Below, piece by piece: positions 4,248 to 62,738 of a stretch of 64,000 nt of DNA (position 1 is its first letter; each line of letters begins with the position of its first letter). Origin of the DNA: Dehalococcoidia bacterium (GTDB taxonomy: Bacteria; Chloroflexota; Dehalococcoidia; Lucifugimonadales; UBA2962); NCBI GenBank assembly GCA_034421295.1, contig DAOUKM010000019.1, positions 257,611 to 321,610 of the forward strand, written 5' to 3'. Both the position numbers and the translations under genes were made by a program. A model generated the notes under the pieces. It was not told the DNA's origin. It did no database searches and saw nothing but the letters and a program-made list of their open reading frames with translations.

Positions 4248-4268
4248 CGATAAAATAGGCGGTCTATG
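4248..4268 (+). promoter_or_regulatory. Candidate -10 box (TAAAAT 4251-4256) giving a leaderless or near-leaderless transcript for the 1550-aa gene
   Basis: CGATAAAATAG at 4248-4258, ATG at 4266, only 9 nt after the hexamer, no Shine-Dalgarno. The same 11-mer recurs at 26618-26628 upstream of the SLC13 gene. Confidence 0.35.
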
Positions 4269-10958: not shown

Positions 10959-11086
10959 AACTGTCACGGTGCCTGCTGAGTTTGCATCAGAGTCTATAGA
11001 AATCGAGGGCGACCAACACTGTCGGCGCGCGAACACGAGGGGCGGGTAAGGTACTATGCGATCGGTCGACTGCCCAGGAGGATCAG

Positions 11087-15202: not shown

Positions 15203-15326
15203 TTGTGCATGCACCCTTCCGCCGGGCTCTCTGGGAACGTCGCGGCATAGGGACCACTGCGGGTGAAGGCCACGGGTGACCATCCAGCGACGGCAGGATT
15301 GAACAGTCTGCGAGGAGAATCTACAT

Positions 15327-16355: not shown

Positions 16356-16358
16356 CCC

Positions 16359-43252: not shown

Positions 43253-43308
43253 CGGAAGGCCTGAAAATGGCCTTGATAAAGTGCCGTCTGTTCGGCGAGG
43301 AGGACTGT

Positions 43309-45522: not shown

Positions 45523-46437
45523 TTGACAGATGTCCAGACCGTAACGGGACCGGTTCCCGCAGAATCGCTGGGGACAACGCTTCCACACGAGCACGTGGTT
45601 ATCGACCACATGCTCGACAACTGGATGCCTGGCAACCTGCTCAGCGACCCGGTCCTTGCCGAGCTGGAGCTGAGAGCGGCGCGCGAGGCAGGCGTGTCGA
45701 CCGTGGTTGATCAGACCGGACGCGGCGTCCACCGCGACCCTGCGTTGCTCAGGGATCTGTCCGAAAGCGCTGACGTGAACATCGTCACCGGCACGGGCTG
45801 GTTCAAAGAACGCTTTTACGATCTCGACTTTGCAAAGATGAAAGCCGATGCGCTCGCGGCGATCATGGTGGCCGATCTGACCGAAGGGATAGCAGATACA
45901 GGGGTGCGCGCGGGACTCATAGGTGAGATCAACGTCCACGCCCGCTGGGTGACCCCGGGCGAGGAGCGCATGCATCGCGCCGCGGCCCGGGCTCAGAAGG
46001 TCACCGGCGTGGCACTCGCCGTAGCAGGCACGCACACCTCAACCGTCATGGACCAGCTCGACATACTGGAGGAGGAGGGCGTAGACCTGCGGAGGGTCAT
46101 TGTCGACCACGTAAACGGCATCGCCGATCACCAGTTACACTCGGCGATAGCAGCCCGGGGTCCGTTCACGTGCTTTAGCTCGTTTGCCACCGACAGCGCC
46201 GAGCAGCTCGACAGGGATGCACTTCTCATCAAGGCGATGATGAGGGCTGGCCTTGCCGACCACGTGCTGGTTTCAACCGGGGTATCCACCCGTCGCCATC
46301 TGATCGCCTACGGTGGCGCTGGCTACGCATTTGCGTCCACCGGGATACGGCAGCGGACGAGGTCGGTCGGTCTATCGCAGGAGGAGTGGAACCAGATCAT
46401 GGTGAGAAACCCCCGCCGGGCGCTGGCCGGAGAGTAG
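45523..46437 (+). CDS. Phosphotriesterase-homology protein (Php/PTER family), paralog 4, divergent (last metal ligand missing)
   Basis: TTG start; LGTTLPHEHVV, GLIGEINV, AGTHTS, IVDHVN are present, but the SHD position reads STG (HVLVSTGVS). Confidence 0.8.
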   Translation: MTDVQTVTGPVPAESLGTTLPHEHVVIDHMLDNWMPGNLLSDPVLAELELRAAREAGVSTVVDQTGRGVHRDPALLRDLSESADVNIVTGTGWFKERFYDLDFAKMKADALAAIMVADLTEGIADTGVRAGLIGEINVHARWVTPGEERMHRAAARAQKVTGVALAVAGTHTSTVMDQLDILEEEGVDLRRVIVDHVNGIADHQLHSAIAARGPFTCFSSFATDSAEQLDRDALLIKAMMRAGLADHVLVSTGVSTRRHLIAYGGAGYAFASTGIRQRTRSVGLSQEEWNQIMVRNPRRALAGE

Positions 46438-46441
46438 TTAA

Positions 46442-47365
46442 GTGGTGCTTTCCGAGGTCATGACCGTGACCGGCCCCGTCACGCCGGACGATCTGGGGTT
46501 CACTCTAATCCATGAGCACATCTTCCTGTCGCTCCTGATGGACCATCTGGACACCGATCGGGTGCTCGACGATCCGGGCGCCGCGAGGACCGAACTGCAG
46601 CGGTACAAGGATGCCGGCGGTGTCACGCTCGTAGATCAGACCAACAGGGGACTGGAGCAACAGCCGGAGGCGGTTCGGCAAATGGCCCTTGAGACCGGTC
46701 TATTGGTCGTTCTCGGTTGCGGGTGGTACCGTGAGCCCTTCTACGAACAGCGCCTGTACAGGGAGTCGGCCAGTCAGATCGCCGACGAGATGATCCGGGA
46801 TATGCGGGAAGGGATCGACGGGAGCTGCGTCCGAGCCGGGTTAATTGGTGAGCTCGGCGCACACGAGACCTGGATATCGCCGGTTGAGGAACGCGTGCTT
46901 CGGGCCGGAGCCCGCGCTCATCTCCAAACGGACGTCACCATCGCCACACATGGCCTCTTCGCGCCGGTGGGACTGGACCAGCTGGATATCCTCGAGGAGG
47001 AGGGAGTCGACCCGAGAAGGGTGATCGTGGGCCATGCCCACGACTACCCCGAGCACGAATACCATGCGGAGATCGCCCGCAGGGGTGCGTTCGTGTCGTT
47101 CGACGGTATGTCCGATCGAAACCGCTTTTTGCTTGAACGCGACTTGAGGAACATCAAGAAGATCGTCGATGCGGGTTACATAAATCAGCTCCTGCTGGCT
47201 CACGACGTGTGCCTGAGGTCCGCCTACGTGTCGGCCGGGGGGGAGGGGTACCAGTTCATCTCCACGGGTCTGTATCCGTACCTGAGGGAAATCGGCATCA
47301 CGGAAGAGCAGTTTCAGAACATCATGGTGGACAATCCCCGCCGGGCTCTTACCGGCGAGGGCTGA
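46442..47365 (+). CDS. Phosphotriesterase-homology protein (Php/PTER family), paralog 5
   Basis: LGFTLIHEHIF, GLIGELGA, IATHGL, IVGHAH, LLAHDVC; over half identical to paralog 3 by eye; alternative ATG start at 46460. Confidence 0.85.
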   Translation: MVLSEVMTVTGPVTPDDLGFTLIHEHIFLSLLMDHLDTDRVLDDPGAARTELQRYKDAGGVTLVDQTNRGLEQQPEAVRQMALETGLLVVLGCGWYREPFYEQRLYRESASQIADEMIRDMREGIDGSCVRAGLIGELGAHETWISPVEERVLRAGARAHLQTDVTIATHGLFAPVGLDQLDILEEEGVDPRRVIVGHAHDYPEHEYHAEIARRGAFVSFDGMSDRNRFLLERDLRNIKKIVDAGYINQLLLAHDVCLRSAYVSAGGEGYQFISTGLYPYLREIGITEEQFQNIMVDNPRRALTGEG

Positions 47366-47382
47366 TCCACAGCCCTTCAGAC

Positions 47383-48675
47383 TTGCTCCACAGCGTCATA
47401 TTCATCGCGGCGCTCCTCGTGACCATGGCCGCCGCCGCATGCAGCTCCCAGCCCGGCTCCAGCGCAGAGGCTACTGCGACGGCGGCATGGAGATTCACGA
47501 TTGTGCCGGCCGCCACGCCCACGCCCGCGCCAACTCCGAATCTCGAGCCGGTCGCCACCGTCGAGCAGTCACAGGTCAAACTGGGTCCGGGCTTCGAACT
47601 GGCCGGCCGGCTCTCTCAGGGTCGTTGGGGCCTTACGGCTACTCTCCTTACGGGAGGCGAGGTGGTGATAGTAGGAGGACAGGAGCGCATTAGCTTCAGG
47701 CGCACCTCGCCCATGGAGGCCGAAGTTCTGTCCACCGGCGGCTCGGAGTGGGTCAAGACTGAACCCCTGGCATTTCAGCGTAGTTTTCACACCGCCACGC
47801 TCCTAGATGATGGCAGGCTGCTGGTGGCGGGCGGCAGCGGCCGCGAGATCGTGGACGATGACCGACCCTTCTGGAGCCGGAAGGATCTCGCAACGGTAGA
47901 GATCTATGATCCCGAGACCGGCGATTGGTCGAACGCCTCGTCCATGCGCACAGCCAGGCAGGGTGCACGCGCCGCCCTGCTGGGGGACGGTATGGTCCTG
48001 GTGGTCGGGGGAACGTCCGGCTTTAGCGTCATTAGCGATGCCGAGCTGTACGACTACTCGACAGACAGGTGGGGGAGAGCGGCCTCGATGTCCGTACCCA
48101 GACGGTTCCACACGGCGACGCTGCTATCCAGCGGACGGGTGCTGGTGGTAGGAGGGGAAACGCAGGAAGCGGCCCTATCTTCGGCCGAGATATACGATCC
48201 GGAGACCGACTCGTGGACCGCCACATCCGATATGACCAGGCCCAGGTCCGGGCACGCGGCCACGCTGCTCGATGACGGCAGGATCATGGTTGTGGGGGGA
48301 TCTGACCTGGGGGTCTCCGAAGCGCTCGGCCCCGAGACCACCGCCGAGGTGTACGACCCGGTCGCTGGTTCCTGGACTGTAGTTGCGACAGGTCTTCAGC
48401 CGCGGCGGGGCCACGAGGTGGTAACGATCCCCGACGGCCGCGTGCTGGTCATCGGCGGCGAGGATCTGGTGGGTCTGCCGGTGACGGTGATGGAGATCTA
48501 CGATCCCTTCTCCGGCCAATGGGGATTCGCTGGGTCGCTGCCCGACGAGCGCAGTCAGCTGGCGGTGGTAGTGATGCCCGACGACAGCGTGCTGATCGTC
48601 GGCGGTGGGACCGCCATAGGCTTTGGAAGCTTCCCGGACTACGCCCTGCGCTTCAGAGTCCCCGAAGAGCGCTAG
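47383..48675 (+). CDS. Kelch-repeat beta-propeller lipoprotein, paralog 1
   Basis: Track ORF 47209..48675 overlaps the PTER gene. TTG 47383 gives signal peptide (M)LHSVIFIAALLVTMAAAAC; start uncertain. About 7 blades with recurring H.ATLL.DGRVLVVGG....L.SAEIYDP.T..W. Confidence 0.7.
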   Translation: MLHSVIFIAALLVTMAAAACSSQPGSSAEATATAAWRFTIVPAATPTPAPTPNLEPVATVEQSQVKLGPGFELAGRLSQGRWGLTATLLTGGEVVIVGGQERISFRRTSPMEAEVLSTGGSEWVKTEPLAFQRSFHTATLLDDGRLLVAGGSGREIVDDDRPFWSRKDLATVEIYDPETGDWSNASSMRTARQGARAALLGDGMVLVVGGTSGFSVISDAELYDYSTDRWGRAASMSVPRRFHTATLLSSGRVLVVGGETQEAALSSAEIYDPETDSWTATSDMTRPRSGHAATLLDDGRIMVVGGSDLGVSEALGPETTAEVYDPVAGSWTVVATGLQPRRGHEVVTIPDGRVLVIGGEDLVGLPVTVMEIYDPFSGQWGFAGSLPDERSQLAVVVMPDDSVLIVGGGTAIGFGSFPDYALRFRVPEER

Positions 48676-48723: not shown

Positions 48724-49134
48724 TCAAACGATTCTGAAATCGCGCTCCAGGATGTTGCCGTCGGGAGAGATCCTGTACAGACGGACTTCTGGCTCCTGCT
48801 CGTCCTGCAGGGAGACGAGCAGGTAGTAGGGATCCAGCCACCCGCTCTCCAGGGCCATGCGAACGTCTGTGGAGGACGGGTAGGGGCTGCTGTGGGTGTG
48901 GGAATGGTAAAAGACGATCAGGTTCAGCCCCTGCATTTCGGCGTCCCTGTCCGCGTTCAGGAACTCCTGCGGATCCATGAGGTAGCGAAACGGGCTCTTG
49001 GCCGTGTTCGTAATTCGATACCCCCGAACGGCGGTGGAGTCTACGCCGGCGATTACGCCGCAGCACTCGTTCGGGTTCTCCGCCAATGCGTGGGTGATCA
49101 GGTCGTCGATCACCGCGCGTGGAAATTTAAGCAC
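48724..49134 (-). CDS. JAMM/MPN+ metallopeptidase (Mov34/Mec-like)
   Basis: 136 aa; complete JAMM signature: NECCG Glu, then HSHTHSSPYPSSTD (HxH-x7-S-x2-D). Confidence 0.8.
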   Translation of the reverse strand: MLKFPRAVIDDLITHALAENPNECCGVIAGVDSTAVRGYRITNTAKSPFRYLMDPQEFLNADRDAEMQGLNLIVFYHSHTHSSPYPSSTDVRMALESGWLDPYYLLVSLQDEQEPEVRLYRISPDGNILERDFRIV

Positions 49135-49182: not shown

Positions 49183-49926
49183 CTACGTACGTATCGGCGG
49201 GCCGGCGCTCAGGTCGCCTGAGGCCAGACCTTCTGCCGCCCTGATCACCATGCCGGCGGCGTATTCTAGACCGACTGCGCTGGTGTTGATGTAGAAGTGG
49301 AATTGTCGGACGTCCTCGGGATTGTCTAGCTGGAAAAAGCGCTTGAAATGATACTCTCTTGCGCGGTCCCGGTCGGTGATGACCGCGATAGCCTCGTCCC
49401 TGCCGATGCTGTCGCGCTCCTTTATGCGGGCGACCCGGTCCTCGTACTCGGCCGCCACCCCTATCCGAAGAACCCTCGGGTCATCCTTGAGGATGTACGA
49501 TCCGGTCCGCCCGACGATGACCACGTTGTCGGAGGATGCCAGGTCATTGAATACGCTCCGAAGGCCCTCCAGATAGGCCTCATCTTCGACCTCGTGGCCC
49601 TTGGTTATCGTCGGCTGAGGGAGGTCTTCGTATTCCTGGGTCAGAAATGCGACGGCACCGGGGCCGAAGTAGGGGTCCCCCCCTGCGCCGCTTACGGCCG
49701 ATCTCTCCAGTATGCGCTGAATCAACCTTGAGAAGCGCTCGCCCCTGGTGGGGGGACGCTCCTCGCGCTCGAGCAGGGCCTCCACCGTGGCGCCGACCTC
49801 TTTGGCCGCTCCGGTCAGGATGAGGCGGTCCACGTAGTCGGCCCCCAGCCTTTCGGCCACCATCTGGCCCAGCTGTCTTCCGCCGCATCCTGTAAGCCCG
49901 CCCATCGTTATTACGGCCATGGCCAC
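49183..49926 (-). CDS. Cytidylate-kinase-like family P-loop protein (PF13189-like)
   Basis: 247 aa; N-terminal ITMGGLTGCGGRQLGQMVAERLG P-loop variant and overall pattern of the cytidylate kinase-like family. Confidence 0.6.
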   Translation of the reverse strand: MAMAVITMGGLTGCGGRQLGQMVAERLGADYVDRLILTGAAKEVGATVEALLEREERPPTRGERFSRLIQRILERSAVSGAGGDPYFGPGAVAFLTQEYEDLPQPTITKGHEVEDEAYLEGLRSVFNDLASSDNVVIVGRTGSYILKDDPRVLRIGVAAEYEDRVARIKERDSIGRDEAIAVITDRDRAREYHFKRFFQLDNPEDVRQFHFYINTSAVGLEYAAGMVIRAAEGLASGDLSAGPPIRT

Positions 49927-50065: not shown

Positions 50066-50584
50066 TCAGACGGCGACCATGTTGTGGACCGGCCACCTCG
50101 AGAGTCGCTGACGGCCTCCCAGCGACTCCAGTTCCACGAGAACGCCCAGTTCAGCCACATCACTGCCCGCGCTCTCCACAAGCTCGGCGGTGGCAGCCAG
50201 GGTCCCGCCGGTCGCAAGCAGATCGTCTATTACGGCCACCCTGCGGCCCTCCGGGATGGCGTCGATGTGCATCTCCATCACGTTGCGACCGTACTCGAGT
50301 TCGTAGGCCACCGAACGGGTGCCAAACGGCAATTTGCCCTGCTTTCGCACGGGAATAAGTGGCAGGGCGAGACGATAGGCGACAGGAGCCGCGAGCAGAA
50401 AGCCGCGGGCGTCGATGCCTACCACCGCATCCACGGCGGCGCATCTGTAGCGCTCGACGAAGTGATCCACAACCAGCGAGAAAGCGTCGGGACAGGAGAG
50501 AACCGGTGTGATGTCCCGAAACAGTATGCCGGGCTCGGGAAAGTCCGGGATCTCCCGTATCAGGGCTTTGATGTCCATGGCCAT
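50066..50584 (-). CDS. apt: Adenine phosphoribosyltransferase
   Basis: Track ORF 50066..50671; ATG 50584 opens MAMDIKALIREIPDFPEPGILFRDITPVL. PRPP motif VAVIDDLLATGGT. Confidence 0.9.
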   Translation of the reverse strand: MAMDIKALIREIPDFPEPGILFRDITPVLSCPDAFSLVVDHFVERYRCAAVDAVVGIDARGFLLAAPVAYRLALPLIPVRKQGKLPFGTRSVAYELEYGRNVMEMHIDAIPEGRRVAVIDDLLATGGTLAATAELVESAGSDVAELGVLVELESLGGRQRLSRWPVHNMVAV

Positions 50585-50661
50585 AGATGGTATATCAGCC
50601 AGACGATGGGTCGCCGCAGGTCGTGGCTTACCCCAGCTGCCAGTACCTATTAGGGGGAGAC

Positions 50662-50997
50662 ATGTTTGCAATATTCGTAACGATCGACATAAGGGAAGGG
50701 TTCAGGGATCGATTCGTCCAGGAAAGCTACGGTGACGCGCGAGGCTCTGTGGGGGATGAGCCCGGGTGCTTTCGATTCGACATCTCGCAGGATCCGGACA
50801 ATCCCGACCGCTTCTATCTTTACGAGGTATACGCCGACGAAGCGGCCTTTCAGGCGCACCAGACCTATCCGCACTACCTTGCCTGGAGGTCCGCCGTGGA
50901 GGATTGGTTCGATGGCGATCCCCAGCTCGTACGCATGGAAACCCTGTTCCCGTCGGATGATGGCTGGCGCGCCCAGAAACCACATCTTCTGGACTGA
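50662..50997 (+). CDS. ABM-fold (antibiotic biosynthesis monooxygenase-like) protein
   Basis: Track ORF 50587..50997; ATG 50662 follows GGGGGAGA. MFAIFVTIDI...F.LYEVYADEAAFQAHQ.TPHY typical ABM pattern. Confidence 0.7.
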   Translation: MFAIFVTIDIREGFRDRFVQESYGDARGSVGDEPGCFRFDISQDPDNPDRFYLYEVYADEAAFQAHQTYPHYLAWRSAVEDWFDGDPQLVRMETLFPSDDGWRAQKPHLLD

Positions 50998-52812: not shown

Positions 52813-52982
52813 GTCGCCAAAGTGGAGGCCAGATTAACACAGAGGCCCTCAAGGGCCGTACCGTGCGGAGCGCGGGCAAAGTCCTGCTTACATGCGTTAG
52901 ACTTACCGCCCCACACCCGCTACAGAACGTCAATCAGGACCGCTCGTCCGCCCACTTGGTCGGACCCTTCCGGGAGGTGTTT

Positions 52983-54173
52983 ATGCGCAGGCTGGCTGCA
53001 CTGATCTTGATTATGGCTTTCGTCCTGGCCGCCCTGGCCTGTAGCAGCAGTCCCGCGGCTCCATCTTCCCAGGAGGCCGGCGAGGTTGTCACCGACGCCG
53101 GAGGGGAGGTTGAGACGGCCGGTGTGACCACCCCGGCCGGACCGGGCAGGTTCGTCGCAACGGACAAGATGGTGGACGCGCGTGGCTACCACGCCGCCGT
53201 CAAGCTTGCGGACGGCAGGGTAATGGCCATCGCCGGCAAGAGCCGGGGCGGGGCCTCGGCCTGGAAGCCGTCGTCGATCGAGGCCACCGCGATCTACGAT
53301 CCCTCCACTGGGAAGTGGACGGACTCGGCGCTGCTTTCCACCGTTCGCGAGCACCCGACCGGCCACCTGCTTCAGGACGGGCGGATCATAGTCATAGGGG
53401 GCTCAGCTGTTCGCCAGGAGCCGCTCGCCTCGGTTGAGGTCTACGACGTTGCGGCCGACAGCTGGACGGAGGTGGCCCCAATGTCCGCCCAACGCTGGCG
53501 ACACGCCTCGGTGGTTCTCGACGACGGCAGGGTGCTGGTGGTAGGTGGCGAAGAGCAGGATCTCGTGCTGGTGGCCGAGGCCGAGATCTGGGACCCGGTA
53601 AGCGACGCCTGGACGGAAGCCGGTTCCCTGACGGATGCGCGGGCCCTTCATACAGCCACGCTCCTGGCGGATGGAAGGGTGCTCGTAGTCGGCGGGGGCA
53701 AGCGCGAGTCTCCATACCTGAAGACCACTGAGATCTTCGACCCGCAGACGGGTGAGTGGACCCAGGCGGCGCCGACGCAGGTTGCTCATTCGGCACACAC
53801 GGCAACGCTCCTGTCAGACGGCCGTGTGCTGGTGACCGGTGGCAAGGGCAAGGTGACCCTGACCGAGCTGTACGATCCCGAAGCCGATGCATGGACCAGC
53901 GCGGGCGAGCTGTCGGAGTGGCGGGCTGAGCATGCCGCGGTGCTGCTCTCAGACGGGCGCGTGCTAGTGACCGGTGGTATCGGCAAGGTCGCGACAACGG
54001 ATATCTTCGATCCGCAGACGGACGAGTGGTCCGAAGGCGCGAACATGGTCGAGACCCGCTACGCACACAGCATGACCCGGCTCGACGACGGGCGGGTCCT
54101 GGTGATCGGTGGGAATTCAACCGACGGCGACCAGAGGGGCGTAACCACGGAGGTCGAACTGTGGGAGCCGTAG
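52983..54173 (+). CDS. Kelch-repeat beta-propeller lipoprotein, paralog 2
   Basis: Track ORF 52713..54173 overlaps the TPP gene. ATG 52983 follows GGGAGGTG and opens MRRLAALILIMAFVLAALAC (lipobox). Seven to eight blades H.ATLL.DGRVLV.GG...T.EI.DP.T..W. Confidence 0.75.
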   Translation: MRRLAALILIMAFVLAALACSSSPAAPSSQEAGEVVTDAGGEVETAGVTTPAGPGRFVATDKMVDARGYHAAVKLADGRVMAIAGKSRGGASAWKPSSIEATAIYDPSTGKWTDSALLSTVREHPTGHLLQDGRIIVIGGSAVRQEPLASVEVYDVAADSWTEVAPMSAQRWRHASVVLDDGRVLVVGGEEQDLVLVAEAEIWDPVSDAWTEAGSLTDARALHTATLLADGRVLVVGGGKRESPYLKTTEIFDPQTGEWTQAAPTQVAHSAHTATLLSDGRVLVTGGKGKVTLTELYDPEADAWTSAGELSEWRAEHAAVLLSDGRVLVTGGIGKVATTDIFDPQTDEWSEGANMVETRYAHSMTRLDDGRVLVIGGNSTDGDQRGVTTEVELWEP

Positions 54174-54430: not shown

Positions 54431-55303
54431 TTGAAGTGGATTGACTACCACAGGCCTACGTCCGTCGATGAGGCGGTCGGGTTGCTTGGCCGATACAAGG
54501 ACAAGGCTCGCATCCTGGCCGGTGGCACCGACCTGCTCGTCCAGCTGAGGGGCGGCCGGTACCAGCTCGACGCGATCATCGACGGCAAGCACATCGCAGA
54601 GCTGAACGAGCTCACCTACGACCCGGCCGGCGGATTGACGGTTGGAGCGTCGGTGCCCTGCTACAGGCTCTACCAGGATGAAGCGGTTGCGTCCGCTTAC
54701 CCTGGCCTAATGGATTCGGCCACGTTGATAGGCGGAATCCAGATCCAGGGCCGGGCCACCTTCGGCGGCAACCTGATGAACGCCGCGCCGAGTGCGGACG
54801 CCATACCGGCCCTGATCGCCCACCGGGCAACCGCCAAGGTCGCCGGGTCTGGCGGGACCAGGGAAATCGCGGTTGAGGAGGTGTGCACCGGTCCTGGTAC
54901 GACTCAGCTGGCAGCTGACGAGATGCTGGTGTCGTTGCATGTCCCGTCGCCTCCGAGTGGCTTTGGAGCGAGGTACATAAGGTTCATACCGCGCAATGAG
55001 ATGGACATCGCCGTTGCCGGCGCCGGCGTGTCGGTCGTGCTGGCCAATGGAACGGTGGAGTCCGCCCGCGTCGCCCTCGCATCCGTGGCGCCTACGCCCC
55101 TGGTCGTCGACGGTGCGGAGTCGGCCCTGGTCGGCAAGGAGCCCAGCGACGAGAACATCCAGGCAGCCGCAGATGCCGCCAAGGCAGCCGCAAGGCCTAT
55201 AACCGACATGCGCGGCACCATCGAGTACCGAAAACACCTCTGCGAGGTACTTACCCGCAGAGCACTTCACACTGCTGTTGAGCGGGCGCGGGAGGGCAAG
55301 TAG
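54431..55303 (+). CDS. Xanthine-dehydrogenase-family FAD-binding (medium, CoxM/CutM-like) subunit
   Basis: Track ORF 54401..55303; TTG 54431 follows AAGGAGG. ILAGGTDLLVQL FAD-binding motif, C-terminal CO_deh_flav_C pattern (DMRGTIEYRKHL). Confidence 0.85.
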   Translation: MKWIDYHRPTSVDEAVGLLGRYKDKARILAGGTDLLVQLRGGRYQLDAIIDGKHIAELNELTYDPAGGLTVGASVPCYRLYQDEAVASAYPGLMDSATLIGGIQIQGRATFGGNLMNAAPSADAIPALIAHRATAKVAGSGGTREIAVEEVCTGPGTTQLAADEMLVSLHVPSPPSGFGARYIRFIPRNEMDIAVAGAGVSVVLANGTVESARVALASVAPTPLVVDGAESALVGKEPSDENIQAAADAAKAAARPITDMRGTIEYRKHLCEVLTRRALHTAVERAREGK

Positions 55304-55792
55304 ATGTCGGGCAAGAAGGTTCACGTTACGACCACGATAAACGGCGAGACCGTAGAGTTTCTCTGCGAGCCACGCCAAAGCCTTCTGGAGGTCCTGCGGG
55401 ACGTGGTCCTGCTGACCGGAGCAAAGGAAGGCTGCAACGATGGCAACTGCGGCGCCTGCACGGTCAACATGGACGGCCGGATCGTCGACAGCTGTCTGGT
55501 TCTTGGAGTAGAGGCCGAAGGCGCAGCCATAGGCACGGTTGAGGGGATAGCCTCCCCGCAGGGCCTTCACCCGATCCAGCAGGCGTTCCTTGAGCACGCC
55601 GCCCTGCAATGCGGCATATGTACGCCGGGTTTCCTGGTTGCCTCAAAGGCGCTGCTGGAAAAGGAACCGGATCCATCGGAGGAACGGATACGCATGTGGC
55701 TGGCGGGCAATCTGTGCCGGTGCACCGGCTACGACAAGATCGTTCGTGCCGTGATGGACGCCGCTGGCCGTATGGCTGGCGCGGCAGCTTAG
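55304..55792 (+). CDS. Xanthine-dehydrogenase-family [2Fe-2S] (small, CoxS/CutS-like) subunit
   Basis: 162 aa; CNDGNCGACTV and CGICTPG...CRCTGY cluster motifs; ATG abuts the upstream stop. Confidence 0.9.
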   Translation: MSGKKVHVTTTINGETVEFLCEPRQSLLEVLRDVVLLTGAKEGCNDGNCGACTVNMDGRIVDSCLVLGVEAEGAAIGTVEGIASPQGLHPIQQAFLEHAALQCGICTPGFLVASKALLEKEPDPSEERIRMWLAGNLCRCTGYDKIVRAVMDAAGRMAGAAA

Positions 55793-55804
55793 GAGGCTTT
55801 CGGG

Positions 55805-58108
55805 ATGACCACCACTTACGAACCCAACCAGGTTCTGGCGAACGAGACCTTCAAGGTTGTCGGCACCAGGCCGATCCGCCACGACGGTGCCGACAAGGTA
55901 ACCGGCAGGGCCCAGTACGGCGCGGATTTCAATGCAGCCGGCCTGCTGCATGGAAAGACCCTGCGGAGCCCGCACGCCCACGCCCGGATCAAGTCTATCG
56001 ACACCTCCAAGGCCGAGGCGCTCGCGGGCGTAAGGGCCGTAGTGACCTCAAAGGACTTTCCGCCGGCCAAGGAGACCGCCAACTACGGGCTAGGCGACCA
56101 GCCCATGGACAGGTTCCGGGGCAACATACTAGCCGGGGATAAGGTACTTTACACAGGGCATGCTATAGCCGCCGTGGCGGCCACCAGCCCGCACATCGCC
56201 GAGGAGGCGGTCGACCTCATCGAGGTCGATTACGAGGTGCTGCCCGCCGTGCTGACGGCGCCCGACGCCATGGCTGACGGCGCGCCCATCCTGATATCCG
56301 ACCTGACCACGCAGGAATTCGGAAAGGATACCGGGGTCAACTCTAATGTCGCGGACCATTTCCAGCACAAGATGGGCGACATAGACAGCGGCTTTGGCAA
56401 GGCGGACGTGGTCGTGGAGCGCACGTTCGATACCAAGACCGTCCATCAGGGATACATAGAGCCCCACAACGTGACGGCGCTGTGGAATGACGATGACCGG
56501 ATCCACGTCTGGAGCAGCACTCAGGGGGCCTTCGTGGTCCGGGCGGCGGTGGCGGAGGCGTTGGCGGTCCCCGTATCCCAGGTCAAGGCAACGCCGATGG
56601 AGATCGGCGGTGGATTCGGGGGCAAGATCAACGTCTACGGCGAGCCGGTAGCGGCCATGCTCTCCAAGAAAGCCGGCCACAAGCCGGTCAAGATCGTAAT
56701 GTCCAGGGCCGAAGTGTTCGAGGGGACGGGTCCTACTTGTGGCTCCCATTTGACGATAAAGATGGGGGCGACCAAGGAGGGCAAGATCGTCGCCGCCCAG
56801 GCCGATCTGCAGTTCGAGGCCGGCGCCTATCCGGGCTCGCCTGTGGGTGCGGCGGGGATGTGCGTATTCACCGCTTACGACATCGAGAACGTGGTGATCG
56901 ACGGTTACGACGTCGTGGTCAACAAGCCCAAGACTGCCGCATATCGCGCGCCGGGCGCGCCCAACGCAGCATTCGGCGCCGAGCAGGTGCTGGATGAACT
57001 GGCGATGAAGCTGGGCATCGACCCGATGGAGCTACGGCTGATGAACGCCGCGAAGGAGGGGACCCGCCGCGCAGACGGTCCCGTTCATCCCCGCATCGGA
57101 TGCGTCGAGGTGCTCGAGGCGATGCGCGACCATGACCACTATAACGCTCCCGTTGCACCGGCCGTCAGAGGGGGCAAGACGGGACGAGGTGTGGCGATCG
57201 GATTCTGGTTCAACATCGGCTTCGCCTCCTCCTGCAACATCTCGGTGAACAACGACGGTACCGTTAACCTCGTCGAAGGCTCGACCGACATCGGCGGCAG
57301 CAGGGCGGCGATAGCCATGCAGGCCGCCGAGGTCCTCGGGATAGCCGCCGAGGACGTTAACCCACAGGTAGTGGACACCGACTCGGTCGGTTACACGGCC
57401 GTTACGGGTGGCAGTCGGACCGCCTTCGCCACCGGCTGGGCTGCCTACGAGGCGGCCAATGATGTCAAGCAGCAGATGGTTGAGAGGGCGGCGAAGTTGT
57501 GGGGGGTCGAGGCCGATTCCGTCGAGATGATGGACGGGGTTATCCGGTCCAAGACGGACACCGAACTCACCATGACATTTAAGGAGTTGGCCGGACAGAT
57601 AAACGATACCGGTGGTCCGATCGTGGGCCGCGCCGCCGTGGACCCCGCGGGTGCCGGAGGCTCTTACTGCGGTCAGATCGTCGATGTCGAGGTCGATCCG
57701 GAGACCGGAAAGGTGGATATCCTCAGGTTCACCACCGTGCAGGATGCCGGTAAGGCGATCCACCCGAGCTACGTCGAGGGCCAGATGCAGGGCGGAAGCG
57801 TCCAGGGCATAGGCTGGGCGCTGAACGAAGAGTATTACTACTCCGAGGACGGCCGCATGAACAACTCGAGCTTCCTGGACTATCGGATGCCCACGAGCCT
57901 CGACCTGCCGATGATCGACACCGTGATAGTGGAGGTAGCCAACCCTGGACACCCATATGGTGCTAGGGGCGTCGGCGAGGCCAATATCGTCTCGCCCCAG
58001 GCGGCTGTTGCGAACGCGATTCACAATGCGTCCGGGCTTCGCATGACGGCGCTGCCCATCAACCCGGCCGCGGTTATGGAGGCCACCTGGTCGAGGGACG
58101 GAGAGTAG
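55805..58108 (+). CDS. Xanthine-dehydrogenase-family molybdopterin-binding large subunit, paralog L
   Basis: 767 aa; GRAQYGAD, LRSPHAHARI, QGYIEP, loop KTAAYRAPGAPN, catalytic-Glu block YGARGVGE; RBS AGGAGG. Confidence 0.9.
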   Translation: MTTTYEPNQVLANETFKVVGTRPIRHDGADKVTGRAQYGADFNAAGLLHGKTLRSPHAHARIKSIDTSKAEALAGVRAVVTSKDFPPAKETANYGLGDQPMDRFRGNILAGDKVLYTGHAIAAVAATSPHIAEEAVDLIEVDYEVLPAVLTAPDAMADGAPILISDLTTQEFGKDTGVNSNVADHFQHKMGDIDSGFGKADVVVERTFDTKTVHQGYIEPHNVTALWNDDDRIHVWSSTQGAFVVRAAVAEALAVPVSQVKATPMEIGGGFGGKINVYGEPVAAMLSKKAGHKPVKIVMSRAEVFEGTGPTCGSHLTIKMGATKEGKIVAAQADLQFEAGAYPGSPVGAAGMCVFTAYDIENVVIDGYDVVVNKPKTAAYRAPGAPNAAFGAEQVLDELAMKLGIDPMELRLMNAAKEGTRRADGPVHPRIGCVEVLEAMRDHDHYNAPVAPAVRGGKTGRGVAIGFWFNIGFASSCNISVNNDGTVNLVEGSTDIGGSRAAIAMQAAEVLGIAAEDVNPQVVDTDSVGYTAVTGGSRTAFATGWAAYEAANDVKQQMVERAAKLWGVEADSVEMMDGVIRSKTDTELTMTFKELAGQINDTGGPIVGRAAVDPAGAGGSYCGQIVDVEVDPETGKVDILRFTTVQDAGKAIHPSYVEGQMQGGSVQGIGWALNEEYYYSEDGRMNNSSFLDYRMPTSLDLPMIDTVIVEVANPGHPYGARGVGEANIVSPQAAVANAIHNASGLRMTALPINPAAVMEATWSRDGE

Positions 58109-58146
58109 CTGGCGGCCCACCTGAGGGCCGAACTGGTCGGGAATAA

Positions 58147-58446
58147 ATGGCGACCGTCTTCATACCGTCACTGATGCAGGATCTTACCGGCGGTGAGCAG
58201 ACCGTCGATATGCCCGGTAAGACGGTGCGCGAGATCGTTAACGGCCTTGACGGCCGTTATCCCGGCATGAAGGATCGCCTGATGGACGGGTTTCGCCTCA
58301 AGGGGAACATCACCGTCGCAGTCGATGGAGAGGTCAGCCCCGTAGGCGTGCTGGCCGAGGTCGGCGAGAGCAGCGAGGTGCACTTCTTGCCGGCCATAGC
58401 CGGAGGCTCGGGCGCGTGTACAGGGTTACCGGCAGACAAGTTCTAA
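58147..58446 (+). CDS. MoaD/ThiS/CysO-type ubiquitin-fold sulfur-carrier protein with 13-aa extension after the di-glycine
   Basis: 99 aa; L.DLTGGE..V...G.TV.E....L...YPG.KDRL......L...I.V.V.G and EVHFLPAIAGG match the CysO/MoaD pattern; then SGACTGLPADKF before the stop. Confidence 0.75.
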   Translation: MATVFIPSLMQDLTGGEQTVDMPGKTVREIVNGLDGRYPGMKDRLMDGFRLKGNITVAVDGEVSPVGVLAEVGESSEVHFLPAIAGGSGACTGLPADKF

Positions 58447-58473
58447 GAGCCTTTAAGGAGAGTTTGGGACACG

Positions 58474-60780
58474 ATGACGACCACTTATGAGCCGAACGTC
58501 GTACTGTCAACGAGCGACTACAATGTGGTAGGCAGCAGGCCAATACGCCATGACGGTGCCGACAAGGTCACCGGTCGGGCGCAGTACGGGGCCGATTACA
58601 ATGCCACCGGTCTGCTATATGGCAAGGTGCTGCGAAGCCCGCACGCCCACGCCCGGATCAAGTCCATAGACACGTCCAGGGCGGAGGCCCTTACAGGAGT
58701 CGCCGCCGTTGTGACCGGGGCCGATATGCCTTCGACCAGGGAGTCCGATCCGGCGGATTTCGGCCTCGGCCCGCAACCCATGAAGTACCTGCGCGACAAC
58801 GCCATCGCGAGGGAAAAGGTTCTGTACGAGGGGCAAGCGGTCGCGGCTGTGGCGGCGGCTAATGCCCACGTTGCCGAGGAGGCGGTCGAGCTCATAGAGG
58901 TAGAGTATGAGGTCCTGCCGCCCGTGCTGACCGCTCCGGAGGCGATGGCCGAGGACGCGCCGCTCCTGCACGACGACCTGTTCACCACTGAATTCGGTAA
59001 GAATACCGGCAAGAACTCCAACGTCGCCGATCACTTCCAGCACAAGATGGGGGACACGGAGAAGGGATTCGCCGAGGCCGACCTCGTTGTTGAGCGGGAG
59101 TTCGACACCGCCACCGTACACCAGGGCTACATCGAGCCGATGAACGTGACCGCGCTGTGGAACGACGATGATCGGATCCACGTGTGGATGAGCACGCAGG
59201 GACCGTTCCAGTTCAGGGACGCCATAGCACTGGCCCTAGAGGTCCCTCAGTCCCAGGTCCGCGTTACCCCCATGGAGATTGGCGGCGGGTTCGGCGGCAA
59301 GTTTCCTCTCTACCATGAGATAGCCGCCATCCTTCTGTCCAAGAAGACCGGTCATCCCGTCAAGATCACGATGACTCGAAAAGAGGTCTTTGAGGGCACG
59401 GGTCCGACGCCGGGCTCCCGCGTATGGGTAAAGATGGGCGCTACCAAAGAGGGCAAGATCACGGCCGCCGAGTCATCCCTCAAGTTCGAGGCCGGGGCTT
59501 TCCCCGGTTCCCCTGTCGGCGCTGCGGCCATGTGCGTGTTTGCCTGCTACGACATCCCCAACGTTACGGTCGACGGTTACGACGTGGTTGTTAACAAGCC
59601 GAAGACTGCCGCGTATCGAGCTCCCGGTGCGACCCATGCGGCCATGGGCGTCGAGACTGTGGTCGACGAACTGTGTAAAGGCCTCGGACTCGACCCGCTG
59701 GAGTTTCGGTTCGCTAACTGTGCCAAGGAGGGCACTCGCAGGGCCGACGGACCGGTCAATCCCAAGATCGGCGGTATAGAGACCCTGGAGGCTGTGAAGA
59801 ACCATCCGCACTGGAGCGCCCCTCTGAGCCCTGCCAAGAAGGGAGGCAAGGTGGGAAGAGGTTTTGCCTTTGGGTACTGGTTCAATGCCGGCCTTCACTC
59901 GGCCGCCACGATAAGCGTCAACGCGGACGGCACGATCAACCTGCTTGAGGGTAACCCCGATATCGGCGGCAGCCGGGCCGCCATCGCCATGCAGGCGGCC
60001 GAGGTGCTGGGTTTGAGTGCCGAGCAGGTCCACCCGCAGGTGGTCGACACCGACACGATAGGTTTCTCCTTTGGGACGGGCGGCTCCCGTACCACGTTCG
60101 CCACCGGATGGGCTGCTTACGAGGCCGCGAACGACGTAAAGAGGCAGATGGTCGACAGGGCGGCCACCATCTGGGGGGTGGATGCCGACTCGGTGGAGAT
60201 GGAGGAAGGGATCGTACGCTCAAAGACCGATACGGAACTGAGCATGTCCTTTGGTGACCTGGCGGCCCAGTTGAACGAGACGGGCGGCCCCATCGTCGGG
60301 CGAGGCTCGGTCAATCCGCCGGGCGTAGGCGGGGCCTTCGCGGCCAACCTGGTCGATGTCGAGGTAGACCCGGAAACCGGTAAGGTGGACGTACTCCGAT
60401 TCACGATTGCACAGGATGCCGGCAAGGCCATCCACCCGAGCTACGTCGAGGGCCAGATGCAGGGCGGAAGCGTGCAGGGCATCGGCTGGGGGCTGAACGA
60501 GGAGTATCACTACTCCGAGGGAGGCCACATGAACAACTCGAGCTTTCTGGACTACCGGATGCCCACCAGCCTCGATTTGCCCATGATCGATACGGTGATA
60601 GTTGAGGTTGCAAACCCCGGCCATCCGTACGGGGTCCGGGGCGTGGGAGAGGTCAACATCGTACCCCCGCCACCAGCGCTGGCAAACGCGATTTACGACG
60701 CCATTGGAATCCGGATGGAAGTCCTTCCCATGAACCCGAACGCGGTCATGGAGGCGATCTGGCAGGGGAACGGCTCTTAA
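58474..60780 (+). CDS. Xanthine-dehydrogenase-family molybdopterin-binding large subunit, paralog L'
   Basis: 768 aa; same blocks as L (loop KTAAYRAPGATH, YGVRGVGE); RBS AAGGAG; roughly three-quarters identical to L by eye. Confidence 0.9.
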   Translation: MTTTYEPNVVLSTSDYNVVGSRPIRHDGADKVTGRAQYGADYNATGLLYGKVLRSPHAHARIKSIDTSRAEALTGVAAVVTGADMPSTRESDPADFGLGPQPMKYLRDNAIAREKVLYEGQAVAAVAAANAHVAEEAVELIEVEYEVLPPVLTAPEAMAEDAPLLHDDLFTTEFGKNTGKNSNVADHFQHKMGDTEKGFAEADLVVEREFDTATVHQGYIEPMNVTALWNDDDRIHVWMSTQGPFQFRDAIALALEVPQSQVRVTPMEIGGGFGGKFPLYHEIAAILLSKKTGHPVKITMTRKEVFEGTGPTPGSRVWVKMGATKEGKITAAESSLKFEAGAFPGSPVGAAAMCVFACYDIPNVTVDGYDVVVNKPKTAAYRAPGATHAAMGVETVVDELCKGLGLDPLEFRFANCAKEGTRRADGPVNPKIGGIETLEAVKNHPHWSAPLSPAKKGGKVGRGFAFGYWFNAGLHSAATISVNADGTINLLEGNPDIGGSRAAIAMQAAEVLGLSAEQVHPQVVDTDTIGFSFGTGGSRTTFATGWAAYEAANDVKRQMVDRAATIWGVDADSVEMEEGIVRSKTDTELSMSFGDLAAQLNETGGPIVGRGSVNPPGVGGAFAANLVDVEVDPETGKVDVLRFTIAQDAGKAIHPSYVEGQMQGGSVQGIGWGLNEEYHYSEGGHMNNSSFLDYRMPTSLDLPMIDTVIVEVANPGHPYGVRGVGEVNIVPPPPALANAIYDAIGIRMEVLPMNPNAVMEAIWQGNGS

Positions 60781-60806
60781 GGTCCTGCTTAAGACTGGGT
60801 CAAGCG

Positions 60807-60833
60807 GCGGGCCGGGGGCTGACCCCGGCCCGC
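60807..60833 (+). terminator. Strong GC hairpin after the operon (terminator candidate, no U-tract)
   Basis: GCGGGCCGGGG (60807-60817) - GCTGA - CCCCGGCCCGC (60823-60833), perfect 11-bp stem. Confidence 0.45.
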
Positions 60834-60852
60834 GTACTTACTGGAGGTGAGC

Positions 60853-61779
60853 ATGACCAGTAGCGACTGTGGCGGCGTAATCACCCCACTGCTTACCCCA
60901 ATAACCGAAGACGAAAAGGTGCATGAGCATTCGCTCAGGAACCTTGTCGACTACCAGCTCGATAACGGCGTTTCCGGGCTCTGGGCGTCCGGCACGACTG
61001 CCGAGTTTGCCGCCCTCACTGATTTTGAGCGCGTCAGGAGCATCGAGGTGGTTGCCGATCATGCGGCTGGTCGGGTGCCGGTGATCGCCAATATCAGTAT
61101 GTCCAGCACGTCGCTGACGATCGAGATGGGGCGGTCCGTCGCCCGGCAGGTCGCGGCCGTTGCGGCCACTCCGCCCTATTACTATCCGCACTCGCAGCAG
61201 GAACTCAAGGAGCACTACCGGCGCATCCGGCAGGCCTTGGGCGTGCCGCTGTGGGTGTACAACATCCCGCAGATGCATAAGACGGTCGTCGCGCCCTCGA
61301 CCCTGGCCGATCTGGCGGAGGAAGGCGTGGTAGAGGGTGTGAAGGACAGCTCTGGTGATGGTGAATCGCTGGCTCAGTTGCATGCGCTGCGCTCCGGACG
61401 CGGGTTTGAGTTGGTGTCCACTCTCGGGACCACTCAGCGGGCCACGACCGCGGTGGCGCTCGGCGCGCAGGGCATCGTTCCGGGACTGGCGAATGCGGTG
61501 CCGGCCGTCTTCGCCGAGGCGTGGGAGGCGGGCCGCGTGGGCGACGCGGAGATGGCCAGGGCCTGTGACGATCGGATAGTTGCGGCGACGCGGCTGCAGA
61601 TGCTCGCCAGGGATGGTGCGAGCGTCCAGGGCTCGGTCTATGCCGGCCTGAAGGCGGCCCTGATGCACATGGGGGTGATTGAAGCCGACCACGTGACCGC
61701 TCCGTTCAGGAAACTCACAGACGGTGAGCGCCGCGAAATACCTGAAGTTCTTGCTGGGCTTGGCCTGGACGGCAGGTAG
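60853..61779 (+). CDS. Dihydrodipicolinate synthase / N-acetylneuraminate lyase family protein, paralog 2
   Basis: Track ORF 60847..61779 (GTG); ATG 60853 lies 5 nt after GGAGG. GVITPLLTP, ASGTTAEF, WVYNIP, Schiff-base Lys in VEGVKDSSGD. Confidence 0.8.
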   Translation: MTSSDCGGVITPLLTPITEDEKVHEHSLRNLVDYQLDNGVSGLWASGTTAEFAALTDFERVRSIEVVADHAAGRVPVIANISMSSTSLTIEMGRSVARQVAAVAATPPYYYPHSQQELKEHYRRIRQALGVPLWVYNIPQMHKTVVAPSTLADLAEEGVVEGVKDSSGDGESLAQLHALRSGRGFELVSTLGTTQRATTAVALGAQGIVPGLANAVPAVFAEAWEAGRVGDAEMARACDDRIVAATRLQMLARDGASVQGSVYAGLKAALMHMGVIEADHVTAPFRKLTDGERREIPEVLAGLGLDGR

Positions 61780-61919: not shown

Positions 61920-62738
61920 ATGGGCGACGAAGATTACACGTTTGCGGCGTTTTCCAAAAATCCTTTCTACCAGAACCTGACGGACAGGCTCATTGAGCTG
62001 GCGGAGGTCAAGGACGGCGAGCGTATCGTCGATCTCGCATGCGGTACGGGCCTGGTCACAAGGCGGATAATGGCCAATCTCAGGGAGGCCAAGGAGACCG
62101 TGATCATAGGCGTTGATCACTCAGCGGCAGCCCTGAGGCAGGCGGTGGCGGATCTCAAGGATGCCAGGGACTCGGCTGTGGTCTTCGTTCACAGCCAGGT
62201 GGAGCACATCTCCGACGCGGTCAAGGAGAAGGTGGACACTGTTTTCTTCTGCAATGCCATCCACTATGTTCCCGACAAGGGCGAGCTGCTTGACCGGATA
62301 GCCGGCACCATCAAGCCCGGTGGCAAGCTGGTGTTCAACACTTCCTTCTACAGCGGGCCGCTGGACGAGGAGACCCAGCTGTTTTACCGCAAGTGGATGT
62401 TCAAGGCCCGGCGCATATTGCGCAGGGAGCACGGGCTGTCGATTCAAAAGATCGACAAGGTGGAGTCGCGCAAGCAGCTGACCGCCGAGGAGTACAAGGA
62501 ACTCGTAGAGGGGCACGGATTCAGGATAGAAAAGCAGGAGGTGGACCCGGTAAAGGTCCCCCTCCAGGGTTGGCTGGACATATCATCGTTTTCCGACTTC
62601 ATCGAAGGCGCCATGCCTGGCGTGCCCCTTGATAAGGCGAGCATGGCGCTGAAGAAGGCGGCGCGGGAGACGTTCGAGGAGATGAAAATCTCCTACACCA
62701 CCCGCAACTGGCTCGACATAGTCGCCGTTCGCATCTGA
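61920..62738 (+). CDS. Class I SAM-dependent methyltransferase
   Basis: RIVDLACGTG (motif I), FCNAIHYV, LKPGGKLVF. Confidence 0.8.
   Translation: MGDEDYTFAAFSKNPFYQNLTDRLIELAEVKDGERIVDLACGTGLVTRRIMANLREAKETVIIGVDHSAAALRQAVADLKDARDSAVVFVHSQVEHISDAVKEKVDTVFFCNAIHYVPDKGELLDRIAGTIKPGGKLVFNTSFYSGPLDEETQLFYRKWMFKARRILRREHGLSIQKIDKVESRKQLTAEEYKELVEGHGFRIEKQEVDPVKVPLQGWLDISSFSDFIEGAMPGVPLDKASMALKKAARETFEEMKISYTTRNWLDIVAVRI

Follow-up and report, generated by a model that had tools for sequence, protein, structure and literature searches.

Why should a gene for a ubiquitin-like sulfur carrier lie between two genes for the catalytic subunit of a molybdenum enzyme? The question is raised by a 64-kb stretch of DNA from a Dehalococcoidia bacterium (contig DAOUKM010000019.1, positions 257,611 to 321,610; called the window here), in which a first-pass annotation had described five genes in the order M-S-L-Ubl-L'. 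These are the FAD-binding medium subunit (M), the [2Fe-2S] small subunit (S) and the molybdopterin-binding large subunit (L) of a xanthine dehydrogenase (XDH)-family enzyme, a small beta-grasp protein of the ubiquitin-like type (Ubl) and a second large subunit (L'). The list of open reading frames (ORFs) and scans against Pfam and NCBIfam agreed with these five genes, their coordinates and their order on one strand (Table 1). Ratios of nonsynonymous to synonymous substitutions (dN/dS) of 0.05-0.10 for L, L' and the Ubl core showed that these co-directional ORFs are real genes and not chance ORFs. When Pfam was run on the ~55 ORFs across the window, no second M or S gene was found, in line with the proposal that a single M and a single S serve two large subunits. 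The association of the carrier gene with the enzyme genes is robust and phylogenetically broad in an ecologically important group of bacteria, and Ubl may serve in the maturation of the enzyme's molybdenum cofactor (Moco).

We scanned one genome per species and obtained 295 relatives of Ubl. Species counts in this text refer to the best 80 of these 295, all of which come from Dehalococcoidia, SAR202 or Chloroflexota metagenome-assembled genomes, the nearest being 97% identical; 663 database relatives were found at 60-92% identity. Neighbourhoods were compared using gene calls on contigs carrying close (92%-identical) and distant Ubl homologs, together with tblastn searches of the window proteins against all loci. 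In addition, 1,425 predicted neighbour proteins from 89 related loci were clustered, and Pfam was run on the recurrent clusters (individual loci are denoted by L and three digits). L adjoined Ubl in 64 of the 80 species, and a gene of the DHDPS/N-acetylneuraminate-lyase (NAL) family followed Ubl in 61. The arrangement M-S-L-Ubl-...-DHDPS with a single L was seen in 39 species, an L-Ubl-L' sandwich in 17 (three on contigs cut short) and L-L-Ubl-DHDPS in four; four further species had L without the DHDPS-like gene, three had the DHDPS-like gene without L, and 13 had neither. One metagenome contig carried L-L-L-Ubl. The conserved core is M-S-L-Ubl-DHDPS-like, and the sandwich is one lineage's version. 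The order L-Ubl-L' singled out by the first-pass annotation does recur, but with a single L in 39 species it is not the defining unit.

In 16 species the stop codon of L and the start of Ubl are 3-4 nt apart, and in 28 the distance is ≤26 nt; the shortest of these spacings imply co-transcription and probably translational coupling. Trees of Ubl and of L contained the same clades, indicating co-inheritance, and the L-Ubl-DHDPS linkage held over saturated synonymous distances (dS >1), where the flanking genes differ. Two sets of genes were found downstream of Ubl: L', the DHDPS-like gene and a methyltransferase in the clade of the window, and a PIG-L amidohydrolase, the DHDPS-like gene and then an alpha/beta-hydrolase in ~20-24 species. 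The methyltransferase was present in ~27 of the 80 species-level loci, comprising the window clade and some others.

In one clade the L-Ubl gap is 580-910 nt long and holds a lineage-specific ORF for a predicted 173-aa membrane protein (L037 9463-9984); no Rfam match was found in the gap in L037 or L034. Insertions between L and Ubl in L081 (6037-9997) and L083 (7364-9940) contain HicB-like antitoxin genes and a Peripla_BP_6 binding protein.

What kind of protein is Ubl? Its core (residues 1-87) ends in ...LPAIAGG, the Gly-Gly being encoded at 58402-58407, and is followed by a 12-residue C-terminal tail, SGACTGLPADKF, encoded at 58408-58443. In an alignment of 27 members, 26 of the 87 positions were invariant, including the C-terminal SEVHF(L/I)PAxxGG, and dN/dS for the core, measured against orthologs, was 0.05-0.08. 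A survey of the tails in the 80 species showed that Gly-Gly is present in every one; Ubl ends there in 15, carries one extra residue in 29 and has 2-57 extra residues in 36. The tails (0-57 residues) are not conserved, but since one is present in 65 of the 80 species, most Ubls must lose residues before the glycine is exposed. To judge from the sequences, the invariant Gly-Gly and the tails are the hallmark of a protein that is activated at its C terminus and matured by proteolysis.

The best match to a profile of the Ubl family was CysO: the A. orientalis protein from its complex with BexX (4n6e_B) came at 7.8e-16 and that of M. tuberculosis (3dwg_C) at 1e-10, whereas canonical MoaDs matched only weakly. 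An AlphaFold2 model had the beta-grasp fold (mean pLDDT 73) and a disordered tail (pLDDT <50). Foldseek placed CysO at the top (39% and 30% identity, TM scores 0.79-0.87), followed by SAMP1, a Thermus MoaD-related protein and then the E. coli, human and mycobacterial MoaDs (19-26% identity). The CysO motifs xTVxIPxxxxxxTGG... and ...LPA(I/V)xGG match Ubl, and the thiocarboxylate and the JAMM association known for CysO would be expected of Ubl too. The two systems differ in that Ubl has no adjoining partner of the CysM or BexX type, its neighbours being a molybdoenzyme and a DHDPS-family enzyme, and in that most Ubls carry C-terminal tails. E. coli MoaD used as a tblastn query found no match in the window or the 89 loci, and the SAMP1 model scored 30.5 bits against a cutoff of 60. 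The earlier description of a 99-aa gene of MoaD/ThiS fold stands in so far as PF02597, the modelled beta-grasp fold with its Foldseek matches, and the C-terminal Gly-Gly of the alignment are those of a MoaD-like protein; what it did not anticipate is the removable tail and the CysO/SAMP1 type. Ubl is, as predicted from these comparisons, a CysO/SAMP1-like sulfur-carrier precursor and not a canonical MoaD. It is found as a single copy per genome among the best 80 of the 295 relatives.

A removable tail implies a step carried out by a JAMM peptidase, and a stand-alone gene of this type lies 9 kb upstream of Ubl. Its top NCBIfam match was the haloarchaeal desampylase NF041370 (75.8 bits, cutoff 130), and PfJAMM1 (5lda) was matched in the PDB at 1.1e-9. 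The gene clusters with a cytidylate-kinase-like gene (49183-49926) and an adenine phosphoribosyltransferase gene, apt (50066-50671); this cluster lies ≤10 kb from Ubl in ~15 of the 80 species, and the JAMM gene is always in it. We consider the JAMM protein a candidate peptidase for the Ubl tail, with loose linkage. The pair recalls archaeal SAMP1 and HvJAMM1, in which a MoaD-like Ubl doubles as Moco-related sulfur carrier and protein modifier, and the top-scoring desampylase model belongs to the same family as HvJAMM1. The differences are that both scores were below cutoff, that the host is a bacterium and that no E1 (UbaA) gene is nearby.

Table 1. Features of the molybdoenzyme locus and associated genes, in window coordinates
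Feature	Position	Strand	Length	Supporting match or structure
JAMM/MPN+ (Prok-JAB) peptidase, stand-alone	48724..49134	-	136 aa	PF14464 1.5e-23
M, FAD-binding medium subunit, XDH family	54431..55303	+	290 aa	PF00941 4.7e-40; PF03450 4.7e-27
S, small subunit, 2x[2Fe-2S]	55304..55792	+	162 aa	PF00111; PF01799 4.8e-31
L, molybdopterin-binding catalytic subunit	55805..58108	+	767 aa	PF01315, PF02738, PF20256 (hammerhead + MoCoBD_1/2)
Ubl, predicted CysO/SAMP1/MoaD-type beta-grasp sulfur-carrier precursor	58147..58446	+	99 aa	PF02597 32.1 bits (cutoff 22.5)
L', second catalytic subunit	58474..60780	+	768 aa	PF01315, PF02738, PF20256; same architecture as L
GC-rich hairpin between L' and the DHDPS-like gene	60807..60833	+		11-bp perfect stem, 5-nt loop
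DHDPS/N-acetylneuraminate-lyase-family enzyme	60853..61779	+	308 aa	PF00701 1.3e-45; likely ATG at 60853 after GGAGG
SAM-dependent methyltransferase	61920..62738	+	272 aa	PF08242, PF13847, PF13649

What, then, might a sulfur carrier do in this operon? The cofactor of XDH-family enzymes contains three sulfurs, two of the dithiolene and one terminal sulfido ligand, and bacterial operons for these enzymes normally have a maturation gene right after the catalytic subunit. XdhC, PaoD and CoxF are encoded in this way in xdhABC, paoABCD and coxMSL-DEF and are presumed to supply the sulfurated molybdenum cofactor. Ubl takes their position, with an entirely different fold and chemistry, and no XdhC homolog was found at these loci. 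We therefore propose, with somewhat less than even confidence, that Ubl is an operon-embedded sulfur carrier for the maturation of the enzyme's Moco. The tail after Gly-Gly would be cut off, probably by the desampylase-like JAMM protein; an E1 whose gene lies elsewhere would then adenylate and thiocarboxylate the exposed glycine; and the sulfur would go into the cofactor of L and L', either as the dithiolene sulfurs via MoaE or as the terminal Mo=S. The Gly-Gly, the removable tail, the candidate JAMM protein and the CysO, SAMP1 and MoaD relatives fit the anatomy of a thiocarboxylate carrier predicted to be co-expressed with a molybdoenzyme.

This role is ranked first because of the maturation gene that XDH operons usually contain and because a precedent exists among the tungsten-dependent aldehyde oxidoreductases (AORs). 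A ThiS/MoaD-fold gene with Gly-Gly adjoins the gene for the catalytic subunit of a pterin oxidoreductase, away from the main moa operon, in AOR-linked neighbourhoods (PMC1779556) and in aorABCDE of Aromatoleum aromaticum (PMC6365974). The MoaD-like products of such operons (aorDE) are not subunits of the enzyme: they were not found in purified AOR and have been read as dedicated cofactor-maturation factors. The present locus differs in that its enzyme is a member of the XDH (Mo-hydroxylase) family and not of the AOR (W-bis-pterin) family, in that Ubl is CysO/SAMP1-like with tails to be processed, and in having the DHDPS-family gene as a constant partner.

The genes that would usually accompany either route were looked for in several ways. 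As the first-pass annotation had noted, Pfam found no XdhC/CoxF/CoxI-type gene among the ~55 ORFs of the window, and also no moa gene and no E1 of the ThiF/MoeB type. E. coli MoaA-E, MoeA/B and PaoD gave no tblastn match at E ≤0.01 in the window or the 89 loci. Neighbour clustering with Pfam, tblastn and a motif pattern revealed no E1 in the 89 loci, and neither a conserved neighbour cluster of the XdhC type nor a match to an XdhC motif was found there; the E1 and XdhC patterns constitute a weak test. With no moa, moe or xdhC gene in the window or the 89 related loci, an ordinary moaD that merely abuts cox-like genes could be ruled out. None of the observations that would have spoken against the proposed arrangement was made: no Ubl lay in a moa cluster, L' shows no decay and the gene order recurs. 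At 43267-44430 (+), 14 kb upstream of Ubl, lies a gene whose product has the class-V aminotransferase fold and resembles SufS-type cysteine desulfurases only weakly (84 bits, cutoff 475); no conserved linkage was seen.

Several observations weigh against a role confined to cofactor maturation. Ubl is nearer to CysO than to any solved MoaD, and its score with the archaeal MoaD model TIGR01687, 32.8 bits, is below the cutoff of 49.5. In the 80 species Ubl was not linked to moaE, MoeB/MoeZ or any further moa/moe gene, whereas AOR-linked MoaD clusters often have MoeB or MoaE; MoaA was missing here as well. The DHDPS-like gene accompanies Ubl as constantly as L does, and in ~20 species a PIG-L-family (BshB/Mca-like) amidohydrolase gene starts ≤16 nt after Ubl, so that Ubl could belong with the downstream genes. 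In the 13 species with neither L nor the DHDPS-like gene, Ubl stands by itself, flanked by tdh and a gene for a periplasmic binding protein in a neighbourhood with selA, ahpC, dxr, rseP and ispG; no gene of the XDH or DHDPS family is present within 10 kb. These species form one clade in the Ubl tree, which points to a single evolutionary event and not to repeated uncoupling. The retention of a conserved Ubl away from the enzyme genes argues against an exclusively enzyme-dedicated role. SAR202 bacteria possess many XDH-family enzymes, which are thought to attack recalcitrant organic matter (PMC5395668), and it is unclear why only one of these paralogs would have a carrier. Ubl could prove to be simply the MoaD of the SAR202 lineage. 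In the Ubl-alone clade a conserved 547-aa protein adjoins tdh (L028 11447-13090, minus strand, with orthologs in 11 loci); it had no Pfam or NCBIfam match.

A possible though unlikely alternative is that the Ubl thiocarboxylate gives sulfur to, or carries, an intermediate of the downstream enzymes, with the molybdoenzyme in the same pathway. The Schiff-base enzyme of the DHDPS/NAL family would act first, followed by PIG-L and the alpha/beta-hydrolase or by the methyltransferase, in the manner of CysO-CysM, BexX-CysO or QbsE/PdtH. The similarity to CysO is in favour of this alternative, as one of the closest relatives was crystallised with the 2-thiosugar enzyme BexX (4n6e_B, 39%), and so are the persistence of the DHDPS-like gene after Ubl, even in the three species without L, and the short distance to PIG-L. 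Tails and a JAMM peptidase are typical of the CysO, QbsE and HcyS systems, and the methyltransferase at the locus could cap a thiol. Against it, the loci contain no E1, adenylating enzyme, CoA-transferase or conserved pyridoxal-phosphate-dependent sulfhydrylase; the gene set looks catabolic; one clade has Ubl without these partners nearby; and no DHDPS-family enzyme is known to use a thiocarboxylate. Matches to E. coli CysK/CysM were obtained by tblastn in only three of the 80 loci. This, and the position of the JAMM gene in a different housekeeping cluster, excluded a cysteine operon of CysO with CysM (O-phosphoserine sulfhydrylase) and the JAMM protein Mec+ as the conserved context. The CysM/CysK-like genes belong to one small clade and lie ~7.5 kb downstream of Ubl (L046 14143-15006, L048 12658-13518, L055 17728-18588).

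It is unlikely that Ubl is a general housekeeping carrier of the CysO/MoaD type, supporting cysteine synthesis, the thiolation of tRNA and/or Moco synthesis as a whole, and that its place in the operon reflects inherited synteny. The monophyletic Ubl-alone group, with its conserved Ubl among housekeeping genes, is what such a carrier would predict, as is the presence of tdh as the next minus-strand neighbour in the window also. The clustering of the JAMM gene with apt and the single Ubl copy per genome point the same way, and sulfur-carrier Ubls can be multifunctional (PMC11323500). However, the L-Ubl-DHDPS linkage has persisted at dS >1 amid differing surroundings, and the 3-4 nt spacing implies coupling to L. 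Moreover, Ubl was never seen beside genes of the moa, cysM/mec or ttuA type, which are usual for housekeeping carriers in some lineages.

A bolder proposal, which we regard as distinctly doubtful, takes one of two forms: the Ubl thiocarboxylate would itself be the donor of the terminal Mo=S sulfur, on which catalysis depends, independently of XdhC and cysteine desulfurase, or the molybdenum and DHDPS-like enzymes would act on a metabolite whose thiolation depends on Ubl. The established route to the sulfido ligand uses XdhC, which binds Moco and takes up persulfide sulfur, together with the cysteine desulfurase NifS4 (PMC13653126). The terms 'MoaD', 'thiocarboxylate' and 'sulfur carrier protein' were each absent from this 2026 review of the ligand, as judged by term counts. 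Donation from Ubl might perhaps proceed by persulfidation of the enzyme or cofactor, as with Urm1, whose thiocarboxylate is reported to persulfidate target cysteines (PMC9574740).

It is very improbable that Ubl, without delivering sulfur, regulates or assembles the enzyme by binding stoichiometrically to L or L' or by being conjugated to them in the manner of SAMP or Urm1. In favour of such a role are the spacing to L, which suggests translational coupling, the high conservation of the whole surface (26 of 87 positions invariant), the resemblance to SAMP1 together with the desampylase-like JAMM gene, and the beta-grasp subunits that occur in other oxygenase complexes (PMC1779556). Against it, there is no evidence of an E1, an E2 or a target, the SAMP1 score is below cutoff, one clade retains Ubl with no L nearby, and the MoaD-like AorD/E are absent from purified AOR (PMC6365974).

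If Ubl is a carrier for cofactor maturation, the locus provides a testable handle on a maturation route that differs from that of XdhC in SAR202, a group abundant in the dark ocean; alternatively, it is a handle on a sulfur-transfer pathway that is coupled to a molybdoenzyme and has gone unrecognised. Searches of the literature for XDH-family operons, SAR202 or Mo=S insertion in connection with a Ubl or MoaD yielded no description, although the library that could be searched is incomplete, and papers on SAR202 note the expansion of the XDH family and not the Ubl gene. Within the searchable literature, the locus is therefore not a described system, as had been suspected, and the AOR operons provide a precedent for its logic. 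MoaD-like genes embedded in operons for pterin enzymes are known only for tungsten AORs (PMC1779556; PMC6365974). What is new is a Ubl-type carrier, CysO-like and with tails, that is conserved in an XDH-family operon with a constant DHDPS partner and without XdhC; the parts are of known kinds.

Which reaction does the enzyme catalyse? M, S, L and L' all have the hallmarks of the heterotrimeric M-S-L type of the XDH or Mo-hydroxylase family: the FAD domains in M, the full set of cluster cysteines in S, and the hammerhead and MoCoBD domains with GGGFGGK in L and L' (Pfam E-values 1e-30 to 1e-68). The eight cysteines of S are C44, C49, C52 and C64 (CX4CX2CX11C) and C103, C106, C138 and C140 (CX2C...CXC). 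M starts with TTG, 6 nt 3' of AAGGAGG, has orthologs of 59-96% identity in 60+ loci and scored below every NCBIfam equivalog cutoff. The top NCBIfam match of S was the glyceraldehyde dehydrogenase gamma subunit (195.7 bits, cutoff 290), and the best PDB match of L was the alpha subunit of 4-hydroxybenzoyl-CoA reductase (1rm6_A, 4.7e-85).

Several known enzymes could be rejected as the identity of this one. CO dehydrogenase was assessed using the curated models TIGR02416 and NF040766. The active-site loop reads AYRAPGAP (L) or AYRAPGAT (L'), neither the AYxCSFR of form I nor the AYRGAGR of form II, and TIGR02416 gave 299.8 and 303.5 bits, the cutoff being 991, so that the prediction that CO is not the substrate holds. 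For 4-hydroxybenzoyl-CoA reductase, TIGR03194 scored 459 and 500 bits (cutoff 994.55), and the beta-subunit model TIGR03195 matched M in two stretches with 124 bits (cutoff 404.55), M being only 290 aa long and without the [4Fe-4S] insertion. Xanthine dehydrogenase proper was excluded by NF043082 (486 and 470 bits, cutoff 780), by the Ile (L) or Phe (L') that replaces Glu after GGGFGGK and by a Pro in place of an aromatic residue in the loop. Glyceraldehyde dehydrogenase, PaoABC (PaoC) and PucD were all far below their NCBIfam cutoffs. The enzyme is thus predicted to be a cytoplasmic XDH-family molybdoenzyme whose substrate would be neither CO, xanthine nor 4-hydroxybenzoyl-CoA.

The substrate would most plausibly be an aldehyde or a heterocycle tied to the reaction of the DHDPS/NAL-family enzyme. 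The latter scored below the dapA, NAL and KdgD cutoffs, and its best PDB match was C. glutamicum NAL (5c54_A, 7.9e-44). An aldehyde is a reasonable guess because this pairing recalls the 2-keto-3-deoxygluconate (KDG) aldolase and molybdenum glyceraldehyde oxidoreductase of archaea. In the archaeal non-phosphorylative Entner-Doudoroff pathway, a DHDPS-family KD(P)G aldolase is likewise paired with an aldehyde-oxidising molybdoenzyme of the M-S-L type, and S, M and L of the window all match glyceraldehyde dehydrogenase models, but with scores far below the equivalog cutoffs. No Ubl is known from the archaeal system.

Do L and L' have separate functions? They share 72% identity, and GGGFGGK, AYRAPGA(P/T) and RGVGE, the last containing the residue that we take from the motif, and not from a structure, to be the catalytic Glu, are conserved in both. 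Full length, these motifs and purifying selection (dN/dS 0.06-0.07 for L and 0.07-0.10 for L', against orthologs with dS 0.9-1.7) bear out the view that both copies look functional, and L' as a decaying copy was ruled out. In a neighbour-joining tree of 74 L-type proteins the L and L' of the window clade were sister groups, indicating that L' is a duplicate that arose within this lineage; the additional L copies in L076/L078, L031/L051/L068 and L084 had separate origins. We found 27 positions that are fixed within each paralog group yet differ between L and L'. Fixed changes from L to L' include I275F after GGGFGGK, P386T in AYRAPGA(P/T) and A726V after RGVGE. The first of these positions presumably aligns with the substrate-binding Glu802 of bovine XDH. 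We likewise take AYRAPGA(P/T) to align with the bovine Phe914 loop, Phe914 corresponding to the Pro common to L and L' and the P/T position lying three residues on.

The duplication, the purifying selection and the fixed differences in active-site motifs support L and L' as predicted catalytic subunits of different specificity that share one M/S module, which fits the suggestion of two alternative catalytic subunits made when the operon was first described. The locus is a clear case from nature of a catalytic subunit that was duplicated and diverged at the active site around one shared electron-transfer module, and such duplication has recurred independently in several SAR202 lineages.

The GC-rich hairpin after L' had been taken to close the operon. 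The stem exists, with a minimum free energy of -47.2 kcal/mol (z = -4.9) for the region 60778-60860, and is kept in relatives with compensatory changes, but the conserved gene set continues past it with the DHDPS-like gene. A run of T follows the stem in L014, L016 and L017, in which it looks like an intrinsic terminator or attenuator. No such run was found in the window or its clade, and a terminator scan made no call there, so that a canonical intrinsic terminator was rejected for the window. The hairpin may modulate read-through into the DHDPS-like gene. A promoter scan gave nothing above shuffled sequences.

Other genes of the window were recorded in the same annotation. Kelch beta-propeller genes are found at 47209-48675 (+) and 52980-54173 (+); the second adjoins M on its upstream side in the window clade, and an amine-oxidase-family gene takes its place in L004 and L007. 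There are four phosphotriesterase-family (PF02126) paralogs in the 64 kb, at 3060-4115 (+), 9891-11036 (-), 44530-45450 (+) and 45523-46437 (+), one of which has as neighbours another paralog of the DHDPS family (11087-12034) and a gene of metallo-beta-lactamase fold (12041-12817). The product of 4266-8918 (+) is a membrane protein of 1550 aa that contains DUF2298 and PMT_2 (glycosyltransferase-39-like) domains. Finally, at 14219-17387 (+), a gene for the E1-alpha subunit of a 2-oxoacid dehydrogenase (14219-15202) is followed by tandem E1-beta-like genes (15327-16355 and 16359-17387), another arrangement of one partner with two paralogs.

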